Shown here: positions 20,851 through 35,140 of the stretch, in pieces
Layout: every line of letters begins with the position of its first letter
Position numbering within the stretch: the stretch's first letter is position 1
Origin: a virus
Virus record (IMG/VR): IMGVR_UViG_3300042691_030776
Reading direction: 5' to 3' (one strand)
DNA: 64,000 bases
Position numbers and translations under genes: made by a program
The notes under the pieces: model-generated
The model's input: only the letters and a program-made list of their open reading frames with translations
Told to the model about the DNA's origin: nothing
Databases searched by the model: none

Positions 20851-21858
20851 TTATTGGCTTTGTCCACAAACGTCATTGCAAATAACCAAGCGGCCCGCTT
20901 CAAATGTAGGGATCGACCAGGAGTTTTCCACTGCGGAAAACCAGGAAATACATGACTCCATGCTGTTTTCCAGGGCATTATTATTCTTTATCAACGGACT
21001 GACTTGGGCATTGGCGGCCTGATGATAGTTGCCATGCCCATATTGCCGTGGATTAAATCCCAAAAAGCAACAGGGATATACATCACCAGTGCTGGATATG
21101 TAAACAGATTTGTTCTTTTGTACCTGGCATCCAATAGGCTTGGGTTCTCGGCCAGGCACAATGTCCTCTAGTAAGACCTCGTCTGTTTTTCTACTGTCGA
21201 ACAGCACTTTGAAATCTGTAGTTTTTGGTCGTCCAATCACGTGTGTTAGTTGGCCTTGCGTGTTGTAAACAGGAGCCTGATCTCTACCATGATTGACCAG
21301 TCGAAACTCCTGGAATCCCATGGTGCTGGCAAGAGCGCGAGCTTGATCCCATTGATGTTGATTGTGGTCAAACTCGATCATTTTCCACACAGCATGCCCG
21401 CCTGCTGAAATAAAGATTTGTGCATTTCGGATAACTGTGGAATAAAGAGTATTTTGACGGTAAAGACTGTGAGTATCTTCCAACCCATCGATGCAAAAAT
21501 GCACTATTGTTCCCAGCCGAGCCAAGGCTTGCCAAAACTCTCGATCTCTGGCGCCGGCATTGGTACTGATCGTGATAGAAAGATCAGGATTAGTTTGTTT
21601 AAAATATGAGAGTATAGAAACAGTGTGTGGATTCATCACCGCATCACCAAAATTTCCATTTACATATATTTCTTTGATCTGGCCAAGAAACTCTTTGGAA
21701 AATATCTGTTGTGCTTCACTCAAGGTCATGTCATGTTCGAGATAGCCATCATTGTAGGGATAGCCGTAGAAGTTCCTGGGGCACAGCGGGCAGGCCGCGT
21801 TGCACCTACTGGATATTTCTAAATGTACATGACGCACCTGATTGATGTCGTACATCAT
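20851..21858 (-). CDS. Radical SAM protein with SPASM/Twitch domain
   Basis: CNAACPLC; C-terminal C...GDVYPCC...CNDVC. Confidence 0.9.
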   Translation of the reverse strand: MMYDINQVRHVHLEISSRCNAACPLCPRNFYGYPYNDGYLEHDMTLSEAQQIFSKEFLGQIKEIYVNGNFGDAVMNPHTVSILSYFKQTNPDLSITISTNAGARDREFWQALARLGTIVHFCIDGLEDTHSLYRQNTLYSTVIRNAQIFISAGGHAVWKMIEFDHNQHQWDQARALASTMGFQEFRLVNHGRDQAPVYNTQGQLTHVIGRPKTTDFKVLFDSRKTDEVLLEDIVPGREPKPIGCQVQKNKSVYISSTGDVYPCCFLGFNPRQYGHGNYHQAANAQVSPLIKNNNALENSMESCISWFSAVENSWSIPTFEAGRLVICNDVCGQSQ

Positions 21859-23255
21859 CCATTGGCTTTGATATTGTTCAACATTTTTTTCAATGCTGAG
21901 CTGTGTACATCAGCTGATACTTTGGCAACTTCACCAGTTTCTTCATCCACTGATTCAGATACTTGGCTCTTGGCCTTGATTGATTCATAGATGCTGGGCT
22001 TCTTGACAAATCCTGAACTTTGCTGTTGATCTTCTCCAAGGTCTCTGATGCGCAGACTCTCAATATCAAACTCTAAATCTACCTTTTGCCCCACACCCGA
22101 AGAACTTCGGGTTTTCATCAGCTGGATTTGATAGCGTCCACGCTCACGCATGGCTCTACTGGTAAAGATACCAAATACATTGTCCGCTGTGTTGATCTTA
22201 CTAATACCGCCCGATATATGGCTGTGGTCAAACTCGATCTCCTCCACTGCCGCACGATTTAGCTGTGAAGCTGTGACAAACAACACATTGAGCTCTTTGG
22301 CCAGATTGCGTAGTTCTTCTGACACATATTTGTCTTTGACAAACAAATCATTAGGCGATACCTTGGCGCTGACAGGCATGATCAAGTCCAAGTAGTCTAC
22401 ACATAGGAAGTCTACTCGTTTGCCTGTCTTGACCTGTAGCTCTTTCAAGTATGCACGGATATCATTCACTGTTGATTGTGCTGGCATGTACTTGATCTGT
22501 AGCGCACCAGACTTTTTCTGCATCATCTTGACCTTCATTTCCACTGTGTCAATGTCTCGGAAGATCTCTTTGCTGGATGTATTTGTCATCATGCTATCAA
22601 TACGCATTGAACACAGCCCTTCACTCAGTTCTAGTGTAATGTAGCATCCGTTGAGTCCTGCCTGTGCCCAGTTCACTGCCAAGTTCTGCATGAACAAGCT
22701 CTTGCCCGAGCCTGAGCCACCTGCAAAGATTTGTAGTTCACCGCGATTGAATCCACCATACAGCAATCGATCCAGCGCAGGCCACCCTGTGGAGTTTTGC
22801 CCGTTGTTGTTTTTTAGAGCCATGAGCCGAGCTCTGGGGTCATCAAAGTAATCTGTGCCAAGGTCTTTGGTCAACGAAATCTGCACAGCATCTTTGATCA
22901 ACTTTTCCACAGGATCAAAGTTACCTTTTTCCAACAAGTCTGCTGACTTAAGGATCGCACGTTCTAGTTCCTGACGGCGGGTAAATCCCTCAAACTCTTC
23001 CATGAACCAGTCAAGATGTCCGTCATTGAGTTCAGGAATCTCTTCCAAGTTTACGCTGGTCACTGCTCGTACCTGCTTACGATCAGGCAGTGTCTTGTGC
23101 TTGTCGGCGTGTTCTTTGATAAACTTGGCCGCACTACGCAGACTACGATCAAAGTTTTCATCGTTATAGATGTTTTGCACTCGTACAAAGCTCTGTGCGT
23201 CTTGCAACATAATCTCAAGAAACAGTCGCTGGACTTCTACTGAATAATCTTTCAT
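21855..23255 (-). CDS. Replicative DnaB-family helicase (T4 gp41-like)
   Basis: GGSGSGKS, ITLELSE, VDYLDL, TASQLNR, MKTR. Confidence 0.93.
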   Translation of the reverse strand: MKDYSVEVQRLFLEIMLQDAQSFVRVQNIYNDENFDRSLRSAAKFIKEHADKHKTLPDRKQVRAVTSVNLEEIPELNDGHLDWFMEEFEGFTRRQELERAILKSADLLEKGNFDPVEKLIKDAVQISLTKDLGTDYFDDPRARLMALKNNNGQNSTGWPALDRLLYGGFNRGELQIFAGGSGSGKSLFMQNLAVNWAQAGLNGCYITLELSEGLCSMRIDSMMTNTSSKEIFRDIDTVEMKVKMMQKKSGALQIKYMPAQSTVNDIRAYLKELQVKTGKRVDFLCVDYLDLIMPVSAKVSPNDLFVKDKYVSEELRNLAKELNVLFVTASQLNRAAVEEIEFDHSHISGGISKINTADNVFGIFTSRAMRERGRYQIQLMKTRSSSGVGQKVDLEFDIESLRIRDLGEDQQQSSGFVKKPSIYESIKAKSQVSESVDEETGEVAKVSADVHSSALKKMLNNIKANG

Positions 23256-23269
23256 AATATCTTTCGTTG

Positions 23270-23968
23270 TTATGTATCAATGTTGTCAATGATATCTAAA
23301 ATCATTTCGGCCAACTTGGCGTGTGTGTTGGGCCCAGGATGGGTATCCAAAGGTGCATCGTCGGTCTGTAGGTCAGCAATGCTGTGCCAAGGGTTGATCC
23401 ATTGCTTCCAGTCAATGAGTTCAAGATTATTTTGTAGTCGTTGTTTGAAATCTTGTGTTTCCTGTTCTGACAGTCCTTGATACAACTGCCGAGCATATTG
23501 GCTAGGTTCTGTTCCTGTCAGCATGTCCTCGGTCCAGGGTAGCATACCGTTGACAAACCAAATGTTACTGCTGGCATCATCGGCCATTTGTTGTAGTATC
23601 CTTGTGTAGTCTATTAGACTCATTATATTGCCATAGTCATGATTCAGCAACTGGTATTGGGCCACAAATGATCGGTCAACCAGACCATTGTCGGCATAGC
23701 TACCAATATAGAATCCTTGTTTGGGACTGGGGTAGACCCAATGCCTATGTAGAGCACTCCATTGCACAAAATAGGCATCGTGCGATCTATCCAGCAAGGC
23801 CTTGGCTGCACGAGTGAATATCTTCAGATTGCTGGATCCACCTTCAGCTTGATTGTCAGCATGAGTATGCATGGTTCGTGACACGATGTTGGGATATATC
23901 GTTGGATCTTGTTGCTGATCAGGATATCCTGCACCCATGGTAATGCTACATCCGCCAAAGTAAATCAT
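23270..23968 (-). CDS. SGNH/GDSL-fold hydrolase or acyltransferase-like protein
   Basis: GCSIT block I, GGSSN, C-terminal DTHPG. Confidence 0.65.
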   Translation of the reverse strand: MIYFGGCSITMGAGYPDQQQDPTIYPNIVSRTMHTHADNQAEGGSSNLKIFTRAAKALLDRSHDAYFVQWSALHRHWVYPSPKQGFYIGSYADNGLVDRSFVAQYQLLNHDYGNIMSLIDYTRILQQMADDASSNIWFVNGMLPWTEDMLTGTEPSQYARQLYQGLSEQETQDFKQRLQNNLELIDWKQWINPWHSIADLQTDDAPLDTHPGPNTHAKLAEMILDIIDNIDT

Positions 23969-24672
23969 GTCCACCCCAAGTGTTTGATCCTGGGTTCCAG
24001 CACAGTATCATACCAGTGACGATTGCCCACTGCGCTGTGATGACCGTGCCAGCCAAAAGAGTCAAAGTCCACTGGACGATTGATGCCTTTGTTGACAGAA
24101 TAATATGTGTCCTCAAACAAAATACTGTAAGGATCTGCCAAGAAGCGTCGTTGGATACTGCCCAACACTGGCCAATCTGTTTGAGGTTGGAAAGGTTCGG
24201 CCAAATTCACTATCAGCACATGCGGCGTCCAGCCTAGGATGTACTGTTTTAAAAGAAACAGCTCTCTCAACACCTGTGCTTCTTGCCAACTGCGATTCCA
24301 GCTCATGACATAACCTTTGCCCAACTGATGTGTGGTCACTTGGCGTAGCCCATCATGCTCTAGTATAGGTTGGCGATCTATTTCTTCAAGATTGTTAAAA
24401 AATCTATACCGTATGGGAGGCTGTCCATCAGGATCATACACAGTAAAACGTTCAATAGGCGGAACACCAATGATTACGTAGTCATCTCGAGCAAATCCAG
24501 CGCCAGCAACAACAAGATGTGATATGCTGTCAATGTTGTTGCCAGGCCAGCTGTAGTTCTCTATACCGTGAATTTTCAAAGCAGATGCAATCAGCCCCCA
24601 CCAAGAATCCTTGGGTTCTACACAGAATCCTGGTGTGCTGTAACTATCGCCGTAGACAAATAATCTAGCCAT
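23965..24672 (-). CDS. SGNH/GDSL-fold protein
   Basis: YGDSYS, PGNN, C-terminal GHH. Confidence 0.65.
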   Translation of the reverse strand: MARLFVYGDSYSTPGFCVEPKDSWWGLIASALKIHGIENYSWPGNNIDSISHLVVAGAGFARDDYVIIGVPPIERFTVYDPDGQPPIRYRFFNNLEEIDRQPILEHDGLRQVTTHQLGKGYVMSWNRSWQEAQVLRELFLLKQYILGWTPHVLIVNLAEPFQPQTDWPVLGSIQRRFLADPYSILFEDTYYSVNKGINRPVDFDSFGWHGHHSAVGNRHWYDTVLEPRIKHLGWT

Positions 24673-25624
24673 GAATCTTCCTGAGCAAGTTATTGCGAGC
24701 TATTTCTATCTTGATACGACTGGTATTTCTAGCTTCAAAAATACTCAGCATGGTTGTTGTACGACCATATTTCTTTACAGAATCGTTGACGTCTTTGACG
24801 TCTGCGCCCCAACTTGGCATGCTCACTGCCCATCCTAGTTCTATAGCGCGATCCACCAGCTTCAATCCTGCTTCGTCTTGATCAGGTACTACTGTGATTT
24901 CTCTACCTAGAGATCGTATCAATCGAACCTGTGCATCATTGATTTCAGCATGTAACACTGCCAGACCGCCGATGCTGAGTGCATCAAACACGCCCTCGAC
25001 TACGATGGCATGTTGCCAACTGTTCTTTTGCAAATCTGTGCCGAATACGTATCCATGCTGTATGTCTTGTATGTATTTGGGTGTACGATCATCTAAAAAT
25101 CTTGTGGTATGCCCGACCACCTGTCCATTGTGTGTGAATGGTATCAATATGCCCGGTCGCGGCATGGTCTTGTACAACAAAGGATAATCTCGAGGTATGC
25201 AACGATCTTCAAGATATTGCAGTGCTGTGTCATTTAGGGGTTGTGTGTCGGCTGGTAAGTTTCGATCTTCGAAGTTGATGTCCTGCAACTTTTGAAGTAC
25301 CTGCTGTCGTTCGTCGAGCATGCCAGCGATATTTTTATGTTTGAGACTTTCAAGATTGATACGCTCGATCTCATTTCGATCAACATTGAGCCAGCCCAAC
25401 AGCTTACGAGCTTTAAACGACAAGTTCCGTCCCAACACAAAGCTGGCAGTGAACCCGCAGTTGAAACAATGATAGCTCCAACCTTGGTCTGTTGTTTTGA
25501 GGCCGCCACGTTGTCGTCGATCTGGTGACTCACCATTGTGGACGCAACAAGGCGCATTGAAGCTTATCCAGCCCGAGCTGGTGCTTTTGCGTTTGGCTGG
25601 TAGGTAAGAAAGTACATCTATCAC
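24665..25624 (-). CDS. DNA primase (T4 gp61-like)
   Basis: Zn domain (PCC...HCFNC); TOPRIM VVEGVFDAL, PDQDEAG, KDVND. Confidence 0.9.
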   Translation of the reverse strand: MIDVLSYLPAKRKSTSSGWISFNAPCCVHNGESPDRRQRGGLKTTDQGWSYHCFNCGFTASFVLGRNLSFKARKLLGWLNVDRNEIERINLESLKHKNIAGMLDERQQVLQKLQDINFEDRNLPADTQPLNDTALQYLEDRCIPRDYPLLYKTMPRPGILIPFTHNGQVVGHTTRFLDDRTPKYIQDIQHGYVFGTDLQKNSWQHAIVVEGVFDALSIGGLAVLHAEINDAQVRLIRSLGREITVVPDQDEAGLKLVDRAIELGWAVSMPSWGADVKDVNDSVKKYGRTTTMLSIFEARNTSRIKIEIARNNLLRKIHG

Positions 25625-26361
25625 TCTAACATTTTAGCATACTTTATGTGTTCAATCAAGTGATCTGCTATGAGTTGATGGCCTTTTTCATTGGGATGCC
25701 CTCCCCGAGCAAAGGGTTCGATTCCCAGTTCTTGCTTTTTTTGGTGTAGTATTTCGCGCCAGCTCAGTCCTGGATAGATTAGGCTAGGCACAGTCACACC
25801 ATATCGATTTGGCAACACTGAGAACTGTATCACGGGGATTCCATATCGGCTCACAGCTTGATCAAACAGATTGATCGTTTGTTGGAAATTATATTCTGCC
25901 CAGTCTGCGTGGTAACTCATGCCTAACCAAAGCTTCTGAAGTTTAAACCAGTTTTCGTCGATGTCCGGATTGGGTTGTGTGAGCCAGGTACCATGCATGT
26001 GTCGATTCCACTGTGGATCTTTGCGGCTGATTTCGTGCAAGGGATTAAACCAACTCTGTCGAGTAGCATCTGTCAGCCCTACCAAGAACAGTACATCATC
26101 TGTGCTTTGACCATTGCGGAGATACCACATAAAGTTCCAACGCATGCTTTCTAGGCTAGAACCCGGAAAGGCCATGTTGTCTAGTTCAAGACCAAAGTGT
26201 TCAGCCACCCGACCAGCATAACAATGTTTTAATCTGTAGGGACGATTTTCATCGTAGTGATCTCTAAATTCATCATCAGATAAATCTCGAAATTCAGGGG
26301 CGATAAGTTCGTCACCGTAGGTCCAGCTGTCGCCAAACACTACTAGTTTGCGTATCTTCAT
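25621..26361 (-). CDS. SGNH/GDSL-fold protein
   Basis: FGDSWTYG, PGSS, GHPNEKGH. Confidence 0.7.
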   Translation of the reverse strand: MKIRKLVVFGDSWTYGDELIAPEFRDLSDDEFRDHYDENRPYRLKHCYAGRVAEHFGLELDNMAFPGSSLESMRWNFMWYLRNGQSTDDVLFLVGLTDATRQSWFNPLHEISRKDPQWNRHMHGTWLTQPNPDIDENWFKLQKLWLGMSYHADWAEYNFQQTINLFDQAVSRYGIPVIQFSVLPNRYGVTVPSLIYPGLSWREILHQKKQELGIEPFARGGHPNEKGHQLIADHLIEHIKYAKMLE

Positions 26362-27353
26362 CTAAATGCTATTGAAGTGATAAATCCGTTGTTGATTGCG
26401 GCGTTGGGGTTATTGACGTAGCCTTCACCACCAGTGATCACCACCGCACCTGTGATGTTACCGCCTGATGCTGTGGCATACCCTGTGGCTCCAGTACCTT
26501 CGCCATGGATATCAATGTTGGGGAATGGTGTAGATATCCACTGACTGCCTTGATTGTTCATGGTGATATTGGTCACATTACCACCACTGACTACAACATT
26601 GCCAACCTTGGCTTTGTAACCATATTGGTTGACTTCAAAACGAACATAGTTATGATAACCTTCGATGTTCCAGTGATCGCGTTCAACTTGATTGATATAC
26701 TGGCGCTGGCTACCTATGTCGTACCATGGTCCCAACTGCGTGTTAGATCCTTGTGGTTTTACGTTGCCTGAAAAGTTGTCAAACGTCATCTGGAACGTGA
26801 CCAAGGGTCGGCCCTGTACATACACAGATGATGTGTGATTCCGGTTGGGATTATCTTGACTGATTTCTGGGTTGGTGGGCACAGTCATTATTTCACTGGG
26901 CACAAAGTCTGGATACACCGAATCTAGTATATCTGCTTTGCCACGACCTCCTGAATAAGCATCTGTAAACACAGGTTCGTAGAGTGAGCTAGTCACTGTG
27001 TTGCGTTCAAGACTCCAGCCCACGGGCTGTGCATCTATGGAATCAAGTTCTGTTGACAGCAGTGTTACTTTGGCTCGTCCATAGGTGGCATTCAGGATTT
27101 CCAAGTCTTTGCTCAACAACAGTATGTCTCCGTTGGTGCTGATCAGTCTAAATGTGATGGTGCTACCCGTGATGTTCACGGGCTTTTCGTCTTGATTGAC
27201 GAACTGGAATAATATGACGTTGTCCACGCCACGATGTATTTTTAGATTTTTTGTGTACACAGGTTGCCACCTCCGGTCAAAGTAAGCACCACTGGTATCA
27301 ATCATTAATACCTGTTGTTTTTGTTGATATAAATAGGCAGTGGTAGAATACAT
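26358..27353 (-). CDS. Probable virion structural (baseplate/tail) protein
   Basis: GVDNVILFQFVNQDEKPVNIT (BppU-N-like) and Gly-rich beta repeats at the C-terminus. Confidence 0.55.
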   Translation of the reverse strand: MYSTTAYLYQQKQQVLMIDTSGAYFDRRWQPVYTKNLKIHRGVDNVILFQFVNQDEKPVNITGSTITFRLISTNGDILLLSKDLEILNATYGRAKVTLLSTELDSIDAQPVGWSLERNTVTSSLYEPVFTDAYSGGRGKADILDSVYPDFVPSEIMTVPTNPEISQDNPNRNHTSSVYVQGRPLVTFQMTFDNFSGNVKPQGSNTQLGPWYDIGSQRQYINQVERDHWNIEGYHNYVRFEVNQYGYKAKVGNVVVSGGNVTNITMNNQGSQWISTPFPNIDIHGEGTGATGYATASGGNITGAVVITGGEGYVNNPNAAINNGFITSIAFR

Positions 27354-27377
27354 AAGAATAATTTCCTAAAGATATTT

Positions 27378-27755
27378 ATGGGCACAGAGATCTTCGCTAA
27401 AATAGCCGAACGCTATCCTTTTATAACATTCTGCGCTTATGCAGGCAACGAATACATCGGTGTGGTGCAGAATCGCGATGACGCTGTTACAACCATCTAT
27501 GACTTTGGAAACATACCCAATCCTGAACTTAAAAAACTGTTTCTAGAGCTGGCCAATCAATGGTGGTGGGAAAGCAATCGTAGCATACCCATAAACATAT
27601 TCTTGAAGAACGACTGGGAAATATTCCGTCCTTTCTTAAAGACTTTTGTCAACAAAGATCTGGAAATATTGCACGGGCCTTGCACCAGCCTAATAGACAT
27701 CGCCCGTAAAAAGAGCAAACGTAAATCAATCACCCTGGTCCGCAGAATGGACTAG
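27378..27755 (+). CDS. Conserved hypothetical protein
   Basis: 125 aa, WWWESNRSIPINIFL, basic C-terminus; TATAAATA at 27328-27335. Confidence 0.75.
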   Translation: MGTEIFAKIAERYPFITFCAYAGNEYIGVVQNRDDAVTTIYDFGNIPNPELKKLFLELANQWWWESNRSIPINIFLKNDWEIFRPFLKTFVNKDLEILHGPCTSLIDIARKKSKRKSITLVRRMD

Positions 27756-28301
27756 ATTCATGTGCAAGGCCACCAACTGTGCGTAGCCCACTGCATGACT
27801 TTTCTTAAAGAAATAGCTATCGTCTGCAGGACGAGTCCAAATGTCTTGGGCTATCGTGGGCCACCCACCTTGTGCTAGATGCCGCTTGGCCGGACGTATC
27901 ACAGCCAACAACATGGCCATACGCGGTATGCTATTGGGTTGTAGTTGCTGTACCAAATCATAATGATTGCCAATGTGTACAATCTTTTCGCAAAACTCTC
28001 GCTCTTGCAATCTATGCCAAGGTGGTTCCTGGCTCAACATCTCATCGTAGTGCGCTGGATCACGTACCAACTGATACACAGTCATGTTCAGCAAATCTAT
28101 CTTAAAGTACCCACGTTGTTCAGCTTGTTGATAGTCTATGGCCGCACACTTATTCACCGGATCCCTGGGTATTTCAGTGATATAAACACCAGAGTTGTGC
28201 CGGCGTACTTTGTTATCAACTGTTTGACGTGCCGGTATATGCTGTATCAGTTTCAGCACTTGTTCTCTGTCTGCCAGATCGATATCTACGTCTGCACTCA
28301 T
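27726..28301 (-). CDS. Miniature DNA polymerase III alpha (DnaE)-like catalytic domain
   Basis: DVDID, HNSGVY, GYFKIDLL, IRP, FKKSHAVGY follow DnaE motifs in order; TGATG overlap with upstream gene. Confidence 0.8.
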   Translation of the reverse strand: MSADVDIDLADREQVLKLIQHIPARQTVDNKVRRHNSGVYITEIPRDPVNKCAAIDYQQAEQRGYFKIDLLNMTVYQLVRDPAHYDEMLSQEPPWHRLQEREFCEKIVHIGNHYDLVQQLQPNSIPRMAMLLAVIRPAKRHLAQGGWPTIAQDIWTRPADDSYFFKKSHAVGYAQLVALHMNLVHSADQGD

Positions 28302-28981
28302 CACCAACCTGCTTTCTTTAACATTTCTCTAGCATATTCTTGATCTGCTGGATAGTCTCGGAACTTTTTCTGCCAGCACTCTGGATCAATCCAGGGCCAT
28401 ACGATCTTAGTCTGATCAGGATCCATGTTCTCTAACCAGGCTTGGCCACTTTCACAGTTATACAATACCCAGGCGCTGACCCGACCTGTACTGATGGCAT
28501 AGGCAATGGCATTGTCATTGCCATATCTTAAGAAATCCTGAGCAGGATGTTCATGTGTTTCACTCCATTTGATAGAATGTTCTATGGCACGAGCCAAAGC
28601 ATCGTTCACAGATTCTCTACGAAGATAGTCTGTCAGATATTCGGTATAGATTGAGTCGCGGCACCAATGATCAATCTTTTTATTTTTTTCTACTACCCAT
28701 TCTATAAATCTTGGTGTGTTTACTGCATTGATATCTACACAGTACCGGCCAAACTTGGCAAAGGCCCTATAGTAAGGACTGCGAGCAAAATCATCAAAAG
28801 TCTTGAGCTTGGCAGACCCTTGGGTCATTTCGTAGAAACGCAGATAAGCCTGTAATCCTAACTGTACTCCTCGATCGTTCTGGCTTTGAAAACGTTTTTT
28901 CTGCTCGCACACATGCACAGCGAGACTGGTTTCTCTCTGGAAATCTTTTTCGCAGTATTGGCAAGTATACTTCTCAGTCAT
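28301..28981 (-). CDS. Zinc-finger protein
   Basis: N-terminal CQYCEKDF...HVC. Confidence 0.7.
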   Translation of the reverse strand: MTEKYTCQYCEKDFQRETSLAVHVCEQKKRFQSQNDRGVQLGLQAYLRFYEMTQGSAKLKTFDDFARSPYYRAFAKFGRYCVDINAVNTPRFIEWVVEKNKKIDHWCRDSIYTEYLTDYLRRESVNDALARAIEHSIKWSETHEHPAQDFLRYGNDNAIAYAISTGRVSAWVLYNCESGQAWLENMDPDQTKIVWPWIDPECWQKKFRDYPADQEYAREMLKKAGW

Positions 28982-28983
28982 AG

Positions 28984-30147
28984 TTATTTAGAAAACCAGT
29001 TTTGAGGTATCCCAAGTCTAGAAATATCATTGGTCACACAGTGTATGCCACAATCCCAAAAATACTTGTGCCGGAATGGCACCACATGCACTTCAATGCC
29101 GTGTCGAGCACAGGCCGCTTCAACTTGATCGTTGTGTGTAGAAACTACAATGTTCTTAGGATCAACTATCAATATGTTTACATCAAACACAGTTTCGCTG
29201 ACCTGTCCGACCCATTCATCAAAGTAATGATCTACCATGTGTATGAGATTGTTGTCTTGCTCAAACCCAGGCATGAACCAGCGTCCTTTGTTGCGCTTCA
29301 TTGAAAACTCAAACTCTCGCATGTGAGCATAGTTAGAGGGTGGCAAATATACCACTTCCCATTCAGGGAATGTGTCTGCATAGGTAGGTACATCATTAAG
29401 ACTGATGATCAATCCTGGTGTCACAGGACAATACACAGCATCGCCGTGGCCGCCGGAGTTGACCACACGATTCACAGTGCGGGGAAACAACTTGTTAACC
29501 TGATCTAATATAGCTTGTTTGTCATCATGGTACGTTTGTGTGGCAAAGAAAAGGTTCTCACCGATGCGACTAACAAAACAACCGTTGATAAAGTCGAGAT
29601 CTGTGTACACAATCTCGTTGCCTTGATTGCTTATTTCATCAAACACATGATTGTAAAAGTTCAACTTTCCATCAAGGTGTTTCTGATCGACTTCGCAAAA
29701 TCTTGCAAACTTTTCACGGACTTCTTGTGCATGGTTTGGCCATGCTTCGTAGAAATCACTGGGGCGCACATAGTCGGGGCAATGCGCTGGCTTGTTTTGT
29801 CTGTAAAACACTGACCAGGCATGACTAGCATTGGGCACCTTGGGCACCCAAAATCTATCTTCGATCATTAAAAAGTAATCTCTAGGAGCAGTAGGAGGTT
29901 GTACCCATTTGCCATTGATGTAAAGATCTTGTAGATTGTCTGGGAACTTAGGTCTATGAACTTTCACGCCAAATCTTTGAGTCAACAGTTTGATAAGCCC
30001 TTGATAGTCTTCTTCTGTTTCCTCGGCCAGCTTTTCAAATCTTGACCTTGTGTTGGAATCTTTGATCCATGAATAAAACTCTGGAGGATATGTTCGTCCT
30101 ACCAAACACACTTGCAACGGATCCCAATGTTGATATACTGAATACAT
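28984..30147 (-). CDS. Amidinotransferase-family protein
   Basis: WDPLQVCLVG, PRD, HGD, C-terminal GIHCVT catalytic Cys. Confidence 0.8.
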   Translation of the reverse strand: MYSVYQHWDPLQVCLVGRTYPPEFYSWIKDSNTRSRFEKLAEETEEDYQGLIKLLTQRFGVKVHRPKFPDNLQDLYINGKWVQPPTAPRDYFLMIEDRFWVPKVPNASHAWSVFYRQNKPAHCPDYVRPSDFYEAWPNHAQEVREKFARFCEVDQKHLDGKLNFYNHVFDEISNQGNEIVYTDLDFINGCFVSRIGENLFFATQTYHDDKQAILDQVNKLFPRTVNRVVNSGGHGDAVYCPVTPGLIISLNDVPTYADTFPEWEVVYLPPSNYAHMREFEFSMKRNKGRWFMPGFEQDNNLIHMVDHYFDEWVGQVSETVFDVNILIVDPKNIVVSTHNDQVEAACARHGIEVHVVPFRHKYFWDCGIHCVTNDISRLGIPQNWFSK

Positions 30148-30587
30148 TAATCTGTTTTTCCTTGATTTTTTACTAGCTCTTTGATGTCTGCCTTTGTTGT
30201 CATTGATGCCAATGTATCAATATCCGACATCTTCATTGCAGGATATAGGTCTATCAATGCTTTTTTTACTTCGCTGTTGCCGGAATCTTTTTTCTTGGGC
30301 GCGATCCATTGATGCCGATGTGCTCCCATGCCCGGACTCACGGATGTGGCCATGAGCCATTGAAGCTTGGGATGTTTGTTTACAGCAAAAAAATGTTTGT
30401 TAAGTCTTTCATTGGTGGCAATGACATAGAACTCTTGTAGTTCGCGGCCACCTTGTACACTGGACCCCCACCGTATCATGAGATAGTTTGAGAACTTTTT
30501 GCGTTCTTCGTCTGTGAGCTCGTCATAAAAATCGCGATTCTTGCGATCAAACTCTGACATTTCGTTTTGTATTGACAGCTTGTCCAT
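30147..30587 (-). CDS. Putative clamp loader small subunit (T4 gp62-like)
   Basis: FSNYLMIRW...N...HPKLQW...WI pattern; replication context. Confidence 0.5.
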   Translation of the reverse strand: MDKLSIQNEMSEFDRKNRDFYDELTDEERKKFSNYLMIRWGSSVQGGRELQEFYVIATNERLNKHFFAVNKHPKLQWLMATSVSPGMGAHRHQWIAPKKKDSGNSEVKKALIDLYPAMKMSDIDTLASMTTKADIKELVKNQGKTD

Positions 30588-31096
30588 TACCAGGCTTTGT
30601 TATAATCAACTACTTCACAGTTTCTGCTGACATCTTTGACAAAATAAACACAGTCAGGTTCCGGATCGTTGTTGAGAGGTATGCACAGCATCTGACCATT
30701 CTTGAGTTTGGGTGCATACCACGCAACATCATGATACACGTCCACGATCTCTATGTCAAGAAAACTGGGCCGGAACGATGTCAGTGGATTGAACTGGAAT
30801 GCTTTGAATCCTCGATCATTGATCGATGTCAGTGGTAGCATTTCTAAGTCTCCCATGTCGGGCTCACCTATGAGTATTTGCCAGTCGATGGGCATCTTTA
30901 CACGATGTTCGCCAATCTGTAGTACCAGTGCGGGAGAGTTAAAACTTTCAAGAAAGATCAAAGGTATGTAATGGTAGTCAGGATCTGAAGGATCTGAGTT
31001 GTCCAGGATCGCGAACCGCATGTCATCTACTTCTTCGGGTAGCGTATCTAAATCATAGGCTGTGTTGTCTAGTGTCAATATTTTCATGTTATCCAT
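30587..31096 (-). CDS. Conserved hypothetical protein (possible Hint-like beta fold)
   Basis: 169 aa beta-rich, acidic. Confidence 0.6.
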   Translation of the reverse strand: MDNMKILTLDNTAYDLDTLPEEVDDMRFAILDNSDPSDPDYHYIPLIFLESFNSPALVLQIGEHRVKMPIDWQILIGEPDMGDLEMLPLTSINDRGFKAFQFNPLTSFRPSFLDIEIVDVYHDVAWYAPKLKNGQMLCIPLNNDPEPDCVYFVKDVSRNCEVVDYNKAW

Positions 31097-31710
31097 TATA
31101 CGATGTTATTGCGTATTCCGCGACCTAAGATTACTCCATATTCACCAGATTGTAAAATCTGATATCCTTGGGTCATAAGATATGGTACCACTGCTCCGCC
31201 TTTGCCTATGTACACACCGTTGTATAGATAAGTGTCGTCAATGCAAACAACGCTACGCTGAGACATATAAGGCATCAGAGTAATCATTTGATCTAAATGG
31301 CTAACTTGGCAGTTGAGATTGGTCATTTCCAATCCCATTTTACGATACCACGCTTGTTGTTTTTGTATGTCTTCGCTGGGCAGAGCAGGTTCCCAATCCC
31401 AGTCAAAGTTATCCAAATACAGAACTTTTATTTGTCGAGCTCGTTGATCAAAACTCTGACACCAATCGTTGGCATCAGCACAAACAAACTCCAATCTTTC
31501 TAGGTGATCTTTATTTACAGTTTTAATCACACGATGGTAAGCTTCTGGATCAAGATCCACTGTGATCATTCTTGTATGGTGTGTGTTGGCGAGATCAGCA
31601 AAATACGCTGTGCTACCTTCCCAGCGATCCGACCCTATCTCTACCATGATCTCGTGAGGCTCAAAAAACCCATGAAGATATCGACCCACTTCGCGAAACA
31701 AACTGCCCAT
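31096..31710 (-). CDS. Class I SAM-dependent methyltransferase-like protein
   Basis: MVEIGS, ITVDLD, LYLD, CIDDT, GKG. Confidence 0.7.
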   Translation of the reverse strand: MGSLFREVGRYLHGFFEPHEIMVEIGSDRWEGSTAYFADLANTHHTRMITVDLDPEAYHRVIKTVNKDHLERLEFVCADANDWCQSFDQRARQIKVLYLDNFDWDWEPALPSEDIQKQQAWYRKMGLEMTNLNCQVSHLDQMITLMPYMSQRSVVCIDDTYLYNGVYIGKGGAVVPYLMTQGYQILQSGEYGVILGRGIRNNIV

Positions 31711-33176
31711 TATGTAGTCATCCACTCTAGTTTTTCTTGTGTGAACGGGTAGCGAGCTTCTTTGTAGTAGGCCTTGCGCTTGGTCAAGTGTCTTTTGGCA
31801 AATCGGCAGGTGGATGTGATATCCCAGATTTGAACATGGTCTTTGTCCTCTGCTTTTCTAATACCACGCCCAATACTCTGTATAACTCTGACAAAGCTCT
31901 TTCCGGGCTCCACAAGCACCAGATTGAAAATCCTAGGAATGTTAATACCAACAGCAGCCACACCATAGGTAGCAACAATAATCTTATCGGTAGCCTCAGC
32001 CACTTCATCATACTCATCCTGTCTGTCCTTTGCTTTGGTTGCACCACTCACAAACACAGCACGTTCACCAAGTCTACGTACTAACTCCTGCCCGGCCGTG
32101 ATACGATCTACTAACACCAAGGTATTGCCTGTTTCATTGACTTGGCTTATCAAACTAGCCATGGTATCAAGTCTGCCTGATTCTTCCAGCAGATATTTTA
32201 GTTCGCTCTGATAGTTGTTGTATTCAACATGGTCTACCAACTGCACAATATTGACATGGCATTGTGCCAGCACACCTCGATCCTGTAGTTCAGCGGCTGC
32301 CAATCTGTTTATTACTGGCCCAAGGCTGACATGTATGGCTTGGAACTCAAAGTCTTCTTTGGGTATAGTACCAGTCAGTCCCCAGCGAATCGGCACTTCT
32401 GCCATGACCCCTGTCAGCAAGGTTTTCAGTGCATCAGCTTTGGCCATGTGTACTTCGTCAACGATGACACACACAACACCCTCTAGGAACTCACCAATGG
32501 TGATATCTGCTGATTGGTTCTTGGTATTCTTTAACAGCACATTGAGACTCTGCCAAGTGCAGATGGTATGTTGGCGTCCAAACTCTTTGCGGTCACCAAA
32601 GAACACACCTACATCTAGTTCCATGTTGATGTAGTCTCGTTCTGTTTGTGTCACCAGACTTTTGTTTGGCACGATCACTATGCTTCGACCATACGGTGTT
32701 ACAGCATGGCTCAGTGCGGCTGTCATGATTGTTTTACCTGCACCTGTGGCCACTTCTTGTAGGCATTGTGGATTGGCTAGAAAGTTGTTGACAATCTCTA
32801 CCTGATAGTCACGCAACATGACAGGCTCTCCGGCCTGGGGGTGACCTTTGGGCCATGAGATATCTTTAAAAGAGTCTTCTCGTACTTGTTCAAACTCAAA
32901 TGTAGTAGAATATGTTCTCTGATCATCAAGTTCGATATCGTAATCGTATTCTTCAAGAATGGGAATGATTTCGGGTAACAGATTTACATAAGTGCTACCG
33001 CCCAGTTGGAAAAAAGAAACTTTGCCATCCCACCGGCCCAAACGTACCGCAGGTAGATAGCGAGCATAAGGAACATCGTATTTGAACTTGTTGACCAGAG
33101 CGCGGCGTGCATCCAGTTCTAGTCCTTCGATTTTGACATTGACTTCGTCAGTTATAATCAGTCGGGCAGTTCGCAT
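31710..33176 (-). CDS. uvsW: SF2 DNA helicase (UvsW-like)
   Basis: LRDYQ, ATGAGKT, DEVH, GLTGT, QSIGRGIR. Confidence 0.9.
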   Translation of the reverse strand: MRTARLIITDEVNVKIEGLELDARRALVNKFKYDVPYARYLPAVRLGRWDGKVSFFQLGGSTYVNLLPEIIPILEEYDYDIELDDQRTYSTTFEFEQVREDSFKDISWPKGHPQAGEPVMLRDYQVEIVNNFLANPQCLQEVATGAGKTIMTAALSHAVTPYGRSIVIVPNKSLVTQTERDYINMELDVGVFFGDRKEFGRQHTICTWQSLNVLLKNTKNQSADITIGEFLEGVVCVIVDEVHMAKADALKTLLTGVMAEVPIRWGLTGTIPKEDFEFQAIHVSLGPVINRLAAAELQDRGVLAQCHVNIVQLVDHVEYNNYQSELKYLLEESGRLDTMASLISQVNETGNTLVLVDRITAGQELVRRLGERAVFVSGATKAKDRQDEYDEVAEATDKIIVATYGVAAVGINIPRIFNLVLVEPGKSFVRVIQSIGRGIRKAEDKDHVQIWDITSTCRFAKRHLTKRKAYYKEARYPFTQEKLEWMTT

Positions 33177-33991
33177 TAAAGTATTGACAATGAAAAATAG
33201 TTATCGTTTATTATAACATTCTCTTCGAGTGTTTGTCTAGCAAGTGTGAGATTTTTTTCCCAATCACATAGATTACCCAGAGACAAACTGCCCGGTAATG
33301 GTACAAGATTTTTTTGCTGACTCCATTCAAGAAACTCAGCAGGCGGTGTAGCTTGATATGGGCGTCGCAGATTTATGCCAACAAAGGCATCAATATTGTC
33401 CCAGTTGCAATCGTCTTCCCAAATGTCTTGATATATGTCAAGGTTCTGGAACTTTTCAAATGCAAATCTTCCGTGCCCCGGATATTCAACATAGAGATTA
33501 GAAACTTGCCAGGTAAATAGGTCTCGTTTAAAAGGATTATCAACTCTCCAGTTAGTAGAGTCTCGGAATGCATAGTTAAATGACTGCTCAATCAAGTGTA
33601 TGTGACAGTTCATTTCCTGATAGGCCTGGAAGTATTTGTTGTCAATCTTGAAAAGCAAATCACTGAGCTTTGGTATCTTGGCTCGAGTATCTGCCCAGGC
33701 CTTGTGCAGTGTATTCAACTGGCGTTGATCATACCAGTTTTCAGGTTTCTGGAATAGAGGAAGTTTTAACTTTCCTAAGATTTCATTGACAGTATCAATG
33801 TATTCTATTTCTTCTTGAATGAACCGTTGTGTGTTTCGCGGAAAGAAAAACTCATCAACAAGTTGCCCGCCGGACTTGTACCTATTGCCCTTTTCTTGGC
33901 TGGTTTCTACAAACCAAGTGGTAAACTTTTCGTGGTGAGCGTCAAATAAAATACTGTCGTTGGTTTTGTTCCAGGTGAGTTTCAATCTCAT
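33176..33991 (-). CDS. Hypothetical protein
   Basis: 271 aa; LNTLH...NCHIHLIE. Confidence 0.7.
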   Translation of the reverse strand: MRLKLTWNKTNDSILFDAHHEKFTTWFVETSQEKGNRYKSGGQLVDEFFFPRNTQRFIQEEIEYIDTVNEILGKLKLPLFQKPENWYDQRQLNTLHKAWADTRAKIPKLSDLLFKIDNKYFQAYQEMNCHIHLIEQSFNYAFRDSTNWRVDNPFKRDLFTWQVSNLYVEYPGHGRFAFEKFQNLDIYQDIWEDDCNWDNIDAFVGINLRRPYQATPPAEFLEWSQQKNLVPLPGSLSLGNLCDWEKNLTLARQTLEENVIINDNYFSLSIL

Positions 33992-34117: not shown

Positions 34118-35140
34118 TCAATGTTTCATGACAGTATTTTCGGCCAGTGCTCGCCAGTTGGCGCTCACTTTGGTAAGGTCCGCAATCTTAAGAGCCATAC
34201 GCAGGCTCATTTCGCGGAGTTTGTCTTTGTTCTCGTCCATGAAGTTGAGAATCTCATCACCTTGTTCAGGTGTGAAGTCGTAGTCATTAAACAGTTGACC
34301 CTGGCGGAAGATCTGCTTGATACGCAGGAACTTGTCGCGCATGGTGTCCAAAGTCAGGTCCAAGAAGTGGCACCGGCTCTGCAGAGCTTCAAGGTGATCT
34401 TGCAGTTTCTTCGACTTGAGGTGATCAAACTTCAAGTTGGTAATAAAGATCGCAGAGCCTTTGAAGTCAAATGAGTCAGGCACACCTTCACGACGGAGCA
34501 TGGCTGAGTCGGAGTTCCAGCAAATACGACGCTTCTTGCCTGAGTCCAGGGCGGCCTTGAGGATGTTCAATGCCACGTCATCTTGGAACACACTGTCACA
34601 GTCATCAAACACCAAAACGTTGTTGGGATCACTGTGACGATACAGAGTGCAGTACAAGCCAATGGGTGTCATCGCACCTTTGATCACTTCGTACTTGATC
34701 TTGCGACCAGACAGCTGATCAAACAAGCCAGCCTTTTCCAGCTGGAACTCAACACCATAGGATTTGCCCACACCCGGAGGGCCAACTACGATCATGGCAC
34801 GGATGTCTCCGGCGATAGCGGCCTTGGTCATGTCGTCAAGGATGTTGAATCGTTGCTCAATACGATGCATGACTTCTTCGTCGGTTTCTACCTTGGCAGG
34901 TTGTTTGAACTCTACTACCTTGTCTGCTTGACCCATGGGCTCTCCATCTACAAACTCAATGTCATTGATGCTGTCAACTTTCACGCGGATTTCATCAGGG
35001 AAACCCGGAAAATAATCACCGTTGGCCACGGTAACAAAGTTACCTTTGGCGCTGGTAGTAAAATCTTTCACCAGTGCAAAAGTAGCATTGGTGATAGGCT
35101 TGTTGCGGTAAACGCCGCGAACGATACGAACTGTAGTCAT
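34118..35140 (-). CDS. AAA+/P-loop ATPase (early)
   Basis: Walker A GPPGVGKS, Walker B VLVFDD, IFITN sensor, ALQSR arginine finger. Confidence 0.88.
   Translation of the reverse strand: MTTVRIVRGVYRNKPITNATFALVKDFTTSAKGNFVTVANGDYFPGFPDEIRVKVDSINDIEFVDGEPMGQADKVVEFKQPAKVETDEEVMHRIEQRFNILDDMTKAAIAGDIRAMIVVGPPGVGKSYGVEFQLEKAGLFDQLSGRKIKYEVIKGAMTPIGLYCTLYRHSDPNNVLVFDDCDSVFQDDVALNILKAALDSGKKRRICWNSDSAMLRREGVPDSFDFKGSAIFITNLKFDHLKSKKLQDHLEALQSRCHFLDLTLDTMRDKFLRIKQIFRQGQLFNDYDFTPEQGDEILNFMDENKDKLREMSLRMALKIADLTKVSANWRALAENTVMKH

Follow-up and report, generated by a model that had tools for sequence, protein, structure and literature searches.

C-family DNA polymerases are the replicases of bacteria and are normally longer than 1,000 amino acids (aa). 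In cyanobacteria, dnaE is split into 2 distant genes, and intein halves splice their products into one full-length DnaE. The smallest version of the family that we know of is a catalytic core of approximately 350 aa that is cut through the palm into 2 proteins. A split minimal DNA polymerase III (Pol III) α subunit of this type was described from sequence in the group 2.2 jumbo phages (Iyer, Anantharaman, Krishnan, Burroughs, and Aravind, Viruses 2021, PMC7824862). The authors also suggest a side role for the enzyme beside a family B replicase and propose the modular Pol III as a model of the ancestral enzyme. Here, we analyzed the gene located at 27726-28301 on the minus strand of a 64,000-nucleotide stretch of viral DNA (IMG/VR record IMGVR_UViG_3300042691_030776; this whole stretch is referred to as the window). 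With regard to both its identity and its two-piece architecture, this gene very probably encodes the C-terminal unit (C unit) of a two-piece minimal Pol III α of the group 2.2 (RaK2/PA5oct/Atu_ph07-like) jumbo phages. The split enzyme has been known since 2021, and this gene is a new, divergent member of a family described from sequence.

The likeness of the C unit to DnaE is far beyond chance. All the DnaE motifs that the initial annotation of this DNA, made from the sequence alone, had listed as occurring in DnaE order are present and could be mapped to E. coli DnaE. DVDID (residues 4-8) pairs with DFDVD at 401-405, RHNSGVY (H35 and G38) with the KHAGGV strand at 510, GYFKIDLL (K67 and D69) with GLVKFDFL (K553 and D555), IRP (R136 and P137) with FRP at 638-640 (R639-P640), and FKKSHAVGY (K166 and H169) with FNKSHSAAY (K758 and H760). 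A family profile (A1) was built from 85 diverse C-unit relatives that are 26-53% identical to the query. Among these relatives, D4, D6, K67, D69, and P137 are invariant, and at least 90% of them share D8, H35, G38, R136, K139, K166, and H169; the mean column identity is 26%. The profile aligns to residues 399-417, 636-641, and 739-769 of E. coli DnaE, and a search of all PDB sequences with A1 returned only Pol III α chains (E 7e-6 to 2e-4), the next match being at E ~1. Alignment of the C-unit family to E. coli DnaE with hhalign covered residues 541-642 (E 7e-5). The C unit also matched PHROG 11778, annotated as 'DNA polymerase' (197 positions), with E 4e-57 and, weakly, the full-length DnaE PHROG phrog_405 at profile positions 773-809.

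The AlphaFold2 (AF2) model of the C unit (pLDDT 96.7, pTM 0.89) aligns only to C-family polymerases. In a Foldseek search against the PDB, the first 18 matches are all DnaE or PolC. VIA-align superposed 185-190 of the 191 residues on 15 C-family polymerase entries with Z scores of 10.2-6.5; the top score covers 189 residues, and the next unrelated fold has a Z of 3.6. In this alignment, the model spans residues 398-782 of E. coli DnaE. The fold corresponds to the second half of the DnaE palm together with a cut-down part of the fingers: the first strand, which carries DxDxD, is followed by a short hairpin that replaces the large DnaE thumb, and a later strand with K67-x-D69 is followed by the helices bearing R136-P137 and K166/H169. 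Because palm and finger remnants account for all 191 aa, the PHP, clamp-binding, and OB domains and most of the thumb are missing as had been claimed; no additional Pfam domain is present and the architecture is minimal. The gene is under strong purifying selection, with pairwise ratios of nonsynonymous to synonymous substitution (dN/dS) of 0.03-0.06 (dS 0.8-1.7) against 4 close relatives. The initial annotation had left room for a missing structural match to DnaE, for relaxed selection, and for loss of the aspartates, none of which was found: the fold is that of DnaE, dN/dS is low, and D4, D6, and D69 are invariant.

The C-unit open reading frame (ORF) is open throughout, and translation from its ATG yields the 191-aa protein. 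An in-frame TTG located 2 codons before this ATG would give an alternative protein of 193 aa; the ATG is preferred because the relatives begin with MSAD[VI]DID from an ATG. The A at position 28301 is common to this ATG and to the TGA stop codon of the 226-aa gene at 28301-28981, which shows that the TGATG overlap is real. Both the intact ORF and its TGATG joint with a zinc-finger gene had been claimed before, and both stand. In a promoter and terminator scan of positions 26300-33300, counts were not above those in shuffled sequences.

The C-unit chain begins 3 residues ahead of the DxD and therefore lacks the preceding palm helix-loop-strand bearing GRGS (E. coli 361-364). Without this triphosphate-binding GS element, the protein is not a complete mini-DnaE despite its 3 aspartates. 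The earlier description of the gene as a miniature DnaE that keeps all 3 catalytic aspartates is thus right about the aspartates and wrong about the complete enzyme. In relatives, the missing segment is encoded by a separate gene, the N-terminal unit (N unit). A DnaE PHROG search located it in Sinorhizobium phage Phosso as a protein of 177 aa, encoded 224 kb from the C-unit gene, with a C-terminus that reads ...GVGRGSS...ELDFDEFLN and then stops. N units are also present in PA5oct, RaK2, Vibrio phage 2.275.O, and Atu_ph07, as well as in 2 IMG/VR contigs (G004 and G005). They score above the Pfam PF07733 cut-off over profile positions ~20-95, their GRGS motif is invariant, and all 73 distinct N units (73/73; 157-177 aa) stop right after EFL[KR]. 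The N-unit profile aligned to residues 345-392 of E. coli DnaE, ending at FERFL. On the DnaE sequence, the N and C units are thus direct neighbors, separated by no more than the absent NPERVSMP linker.

Both halves are present in 16 of the 16 isolates or contigs that are at least 52% complete, at distances of 30-224 kb from each other. Among 10 large contigs picked for their N unit, 9 have the C unit and the exception is 34% complete; the records that lack one half, 4 in number, are all fragments of 22-34% completeness. Of the relatives with both halves observed, the nearest have C units 55-60% identical to that of the window. In addition, a natural fusion exists: P0279, a protein of 375 aa encoded on a 2.4-kb ENA metagenome contig (L089:1066-2193), combines the N and C units in a single ORF, with a PF07733 match that spans the N/C junction. 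No other fusion occurs among the 150 best representatives listed, and a word-based search for longer relatives found no fused forms near the query sequence. Intein halves are absent at the break point: N units end with EFL[KR] and a stop, and the C unit begins with MSAD-VDID. This leaves no room for intein halves at either end, and any association between N and C must therefore be non-covalent. Altogether, every sufficiently complete relative encodes the GRGS palm segment missing here in a gene of its own, and a fusion of both parts exists, which supports the proposal that the gene encodes one subunit of a split C-family polymerase. The accompanying suggestion that its partner might be found among the products of the genes at 28301, 30147, 30587, and 27378 was not borne out, since the partner gene in relatives lies tens of kb away, outside the window. 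When a complex of the N unit, the C unit, and the zinc-finger protein was predicted and scored for the last of these, the score was 0.06 (mark, 0.32), which does not count as evidence in either direction.

The split-enzyme family is very common in jumbo phages of this kind. A scan of 1.84 billion representatives yielded 398 C-unit clusters, nearly all of 180-220 aa, and at 90% identity the C-unit half by itself accounts for 6324 clusters. The C unit of the window is 93-95% identical to uncultured phage sequences and at most 44% identical to cultured phages (34-44% to Atu_ph07, RaK2, PA5oct, and Phosso). In PA5oct, the C unit corresponds to an annotated CDS of 200 aa (record positions 143938-144540). 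A 78%-identical relative is recorded on a 73-kb Logan contig and also on a 332-kb contig. Some members are labeled 'DNA polymerase' or 'DnaE-like DNA polymerase III alpha' in GenBank/RefSeq.

From the residues retained by the 2 halves, a mechanism can be proposed in which the N and C proteins would associate non-covalently, jointly completing one β-sheet. This pairing would rebuild a nucleotidyltransferase active site of approximately 350 aa. The GRGS loop of the N unit would position the triphosphate of the incoming deoxynucleoside triphosphate (dNTP), D4, D6, and D69 would bind 2 metals, and K67 and the finger remnants would contact the nucleotide and the template. With this site, the rebuilt enzyme would extend a primer with dNTPs through two-metal catalysis. 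Templated DNA synthesis is the activity that we favor, although with reserve. Such an enzyme would be distributive or poorly processive and would not proofread, as expected because it has no PHP, clamp-binding, HhH, or OB domains. Family B polymerases are present in 5 of 5 relatives and in contig G004, and the split enzyme would most likely have a side job beside this replicase, such as primer extension or hand-off, gap filling, or repair. The place of the C-unit gene between the UvsW and primase-helicase genes is consistent with such a side job.

The C unit is flanked by a T4-type cluster that encodes UvsW, a gp61-like primase, and a DnaB/gp41-like helicase (Table 1). Across approximately 90 related loci, the gene order is UvsW, the 169-aa gene, the 146-aa gene, the zinc-finger gene, a variable insert of 0-2.7 kb, and the C unit, followed by the 125-aa gene on the other strand, a gene for a structural-like protein, the primase gene, and dnaB. 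The 146-aa and 169-aa genes keep the same order in these ~90 loci and in 5 cultured phages, and the 125-aa gene lies on the opposite strand beside the C unit in nearly all loci and in the same 5 phages. The five-gene core formed by these genes, the zinc-finger gene, and the C-unit gene is present in Phosso, Atu_ph07, PA5oct, RaK2, and Vibrio phage 2.275.O, and the block (27378-31096 in the window; also in loci L001, L006, L093, L094, and L095) keeps its order and orientation clade-wide. The 169-aa protein is the best conserved of the block, with 61-97% identity across loci. Four of the 5 block proteins have no assigned function or fold match, and profiles of the 169-, 146-, and 125-aa proteins gave no match against the PDB. 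At 27726-27755, the C-unit gene and the 125-aa gene, which converge, share 30 nucleotides at their 3' ends, and 3'-end overlaps of 7-23 nucleotides between these 2 genes recur in many related loci.

Table 1. Coordinates of the C-unit gene, its motifs, and the neighboring genes in the window.
Feature	Position	Strand	Basis
Probable C-terminal (Mg2+- and template-binding) unit of a split minimal Pol III α, 191 aa	27726..28301	-	PHROG 11778, profile, AF2 model
DxDxD motif D4, D6, D8 (E. coli D401, D403, D405); metal ligands, first palm strand	28278..28292	-	Conservation and alignment
KxD motif K67, D69 (E. coli K553, D555); third catalytic carboxylate	28095..28103	-	Invariance and profile alignment to GLVKFDFL
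Fingers remnant, R136-P137 (E. coli R639-P640) to K166/H169 (E. coli K758/H760)	27795..27896	-	Conservation and alignment
Zinc-finger protein, 226 aa, one C2H2-like finger and an all-helical domain; upstream neighbor	28301..28981	-	phrog_11058
Conserved 125-aa gene, convergent with the C unit, 3' overlap of 30 nucleotides	27378..27755	+	phrog_11637, E 1e-33
Two conserved block proteins, 146 aa (30147-30587) and 169 aa (30587-31096)	30147..31096	-	phrog_11758 and phrog_11279
UvsW-like superfamily 2 (SF2) helicase, upstream module boundary	31710..33176	-	phrog_16, E 1e-72
T4-type primosome, downstream	21855..25624	-	
Primase of the primosome	24665-25624	-	phrog_47, E 4e-36
DnaB-like (gp41-like) helicase	21855-23255	-	phrog_19, E 4e-70
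AAA+ protein, 340 aa, Walker A GPPGVGKS, LQSRC motif like T4 gp44	34118-35140	-	phrog_1250
Amidinotransferase-like gene, 387 aa, between the 146-aa and zinc-finger genes	28984-30147	-	C-terminal catalytic region

The C-unit gene had also been placed downstream of uvsW and of a clamp-loader-like gene. The UvsW-like helicase was confirmed by its phrog_16 match, whereas support for the clamp-loader-like gene is weak. The 340-aa AAA+ protein has the SRC motif in common with T4 gp44 (E 0.003) and is probably, on this sequence likeness, the large subunit of a clamp loader. No gp62 or gp45 counterpart was identified within the window. The 146-aa protein was considered as a gp62 candidate and could not be linked to it: hhalign against T4 gp62 gave a probability of 0.4%, and a Pfam search with 27 members of its family gave nothing. 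For this protein, the ESM Atlas gave no more than a lead: PF16790 in 11% of one cluster. The C-terminal region of the 387-aa gene matches HsvA (E 7e-7), StrB1, AGAT, and SxtG. This gene is a variable insert, absent from this place in a 78%-identical relative and found between the zinc-finger gene and the C unit in some of the other loci. Modification-type genes (20851-21858, 23270-24672, 25621-26361, and 31096-31725) alternate singly with the replication genes. These interleaved genes include radical-SAM-like, weakly GDSL/SGNH-like (25621-26361), and methyltransferase genes and 2 ORFs with no Pfam or PHROG match, and related loci lack several of them or have other genes in their place.

Directly upstream of the C unit, the zinc-finger protein has the ligands C7, C10, H23, and C25, all of them invariant, and the profile of its finger matches C2H2 fingers, in agreement with the earlier claim that the gene joined to the C unit is a zinc-finger gene. 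In the AF2 model of the protein (pLDDT 90), the finger is followed by an all-helical domain. Nearly all related loci, and also the 5 cultured phages, have this gene upstream of the C unit. Because it directly abuts the C unit in approximately 40% of the loci and variable inserts separate the 2 genes elsewhere, translational coupling between them is common and not obligatory. Many of the zinc-finger homologues (L007-L090) seem to start with GTG or TTG; in this window the start is ATG. A Foldseek search of the PDB with the zinc-finger protein model gave nothing at E ≤ 0.001, and the best Z in VIA-align against 48,161 chains was 4.7. The protein matched only its own family in BFVD and only unnamed viral clusters in the ESM Atlas, and hhalign against E. 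coli DnaE gave a probability of 0.6%. Matches to gp59 were weak (PDB 1c1k, Z 3.4; BFVD 'helicase loader', E 0.6-1.9) and are unsupported by hhalign against T4 gp59, which gave a probability of 0.2%. A search for PF08994, the gp59 family, gave no match anywhere, control genomes included, and is therefore uninformative.

Several observations weigh against the gene being one half of a split polymerase. Pfam gave no match to the C unit alone at E ≤ 1, PF07733 and PF17657 included, and a single-sequence phmmer search of the PDB gave no match either. Within the 64-kb window, no family B polymerase was found, even in a search with the family B polymerase (PolB) of contig G005, and a tblastn search with the N unit of Phosso had no match better than E 0.09; nor does any open frame of the window contain a GRGS motif. 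That the N unit is absent from the window is unsurprising: in the relatives examined the 2 genes are at least 30 kb apart, and the window extends 28 and 36 kb to either side of the C-unit gene. The two-piece arrangement is extended to this phage, presumptively, from relatives that are at most 60% identical in the C unit. A literature search turned up no paper reporting experiments on any member of the split-enzyme family, and we infer the polymerase activity, the substrate (DNA or RNA, templated or not), and the association of the 2 halves. The literature, in which no activity is shown for any member, and the family B replicase already present in these phages would also suit a non-catalytic relic, that is, a DNA- or protein-binding module that interferes with host Pol III or serves as a scaffold and keeps its aspartates for metal binding or structure only. 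We consider this hardly probable at all: the residues that are invariant in the C unit are exactly the catalytic residues of DnaE (D4, D6, D69, and K67), with the other columns only 26% identical, GRGS is likewise invariant in the N unit, dN/dS is as low as stated above, and the DnaE domains that bind the clamp, τ, and ε are all absent. The initial annotation had offered, as its second option, a nucleotidyltransferase that works alone, and a C unit that needs no N unit, perhaps a template-independent transferase or a signaling-nucleotide synthase, would fit several findings. The C unit folds confidently by itself, it holds all 3 carboxylates and K67, and its gene is distant from the N-unit gene in every relative. 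However, such an enzyme would be without the GS loop and the first helix-strand of the Pol-β-like fold, which are the triphosphate binders. Since the half with GRGS is a separate gene whose product ends precisely where the C unit begins, co-occurs with it in all 16 sufficiently complete relatives, and is joined to it in a natural fusion, an enzyme that works alone is very unlikely.

The conserved neighborhood raises an extension of the split-polymerase reading rather than a strict rival to it, namely that the five-gene block (the 169-aa, 146-aa, zinc-finger, C-unit, and convergent 125-aa genes) encodes further subunits of a minimal C-family polymerase with more than 2 subunits. In that case, the DNA- or primer-binding, thumb, or processivity functions that are fused in cellular DnaE would come from the zinc-finger protein and its neighbors. 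The block keeps its order and orientation in ~90 metagenomic loci and 5 cultured phages while C-unit identity falls to 34-44%, in approximately 40% of loci the zinc-finger gene and the C unit adjoin or overlap, and the zinc ligands and many other residues of the zinc-finger protein are invariant, all of which speaks for it. Yet variable genes, amounting to 0.2-2.7 kb, often stand between the zinc-finger gene and the C unit, and the 4 neighbors show no sequence or fold likeness to any DnaE domain or solved structure. Moreover, the block lies inside a larger replication cluster that extends from UvsW to DnaB, and its conserved order may for that reason only reflect a shared replication operon. 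We therefore regard the multi-subunit enzyme as an unlikely, though not negligible, proposition. If true, it would be a modular Pol III of the kind proposed by Iyer et al. as the model of the ancestral enzyme.

For this window, the value of identifying the C unit of a split Pol III α lies mainly in annotation: the gene encodes half an enzyme and not a complete mini-DnaE. The details that are new here are the fixed break point, the natural fusion, and the conserved gene block with the zinc-finger protein. The available part of the article by Iyer et al. (PMC7824862) makes no mention of the exact break point, of a natural fusion, or of a five-gene block with a zinc-finger gene, and the words 'zinc finger', 'Zn-finger', and 'C2H2' are unmatched in it; the PA5oct omics paper does not mention the split enzyme. 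These details supply concrete constructs and candidate partners for a first biochemical test. An active enzyme would define the minimal requirements of the C-family fold and would show the task of a second polymerase beside PolB in giant phages; it might also be a compact enzyme for engineering.

Compared with cellular DnaE and PolC (E. coli 2hnh/5fku, T. aquaticus 2hpi/3e0d, and G. kaustophilus 3f2b), the C unit has the Pol-β-like palm in common, together with the DxD, the third aspartate, the lysine before it, and the RP and KSH finger motifs. The equivalent region of E. coli DnaE is 385 aa long; the C unit, with 191 aa, has its thumb reduced to a hairpin and approximately half of its fingers deleted, and it lacks the PHP, clamp-binding, HhH, OB, and τ-binding domains of these enzymes. 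Whereas their palm is a single chain, here it is cut into 2 polypeptides, with the GS loop on the other protein in relatives. Like the split dnaE of cyanobacteria, the system encodes a C-family catalytic subunit in 2 distant genes; unlike it, there are no intein pieces, and the break point falls inside the palm. A different kind of shortened enzyme is found in some related phages, for example in contig G005, a complete 328-kb phage that has 3 polymerase systems: a DnaE-like protein, the split pair, and PolB. The DnaE-like protein is an unsplit ORF of 566 aa without a PHP domain (L100:1450-3150), located ~6 kb from the C unit of that contig, that matches PF07733 (E 3e-41) and PF17657 (E 1e-16); no counterpart of it was found within the window. 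It resembles the C unit in being a phage-borne, shortened Pol III α without PHP and differs from it in being a single chain, recognized by Pfam, that coexists with a split pair. The closest counterpart is the split minimal Pol III α described by Iyer et al. 2021 (PMC7824862), whose C unit belongs to the same family and matches this one in size and in its Mg2+- and template-binding content. The group 2.2 phages treated there have a T4-like replisome, and the relatives of the window likewise have a family B polymerase and a far-off N unit. From the members described there, this C unit differs only by its new, divergent sequence, with no more than 44% identity to the cultured phages.

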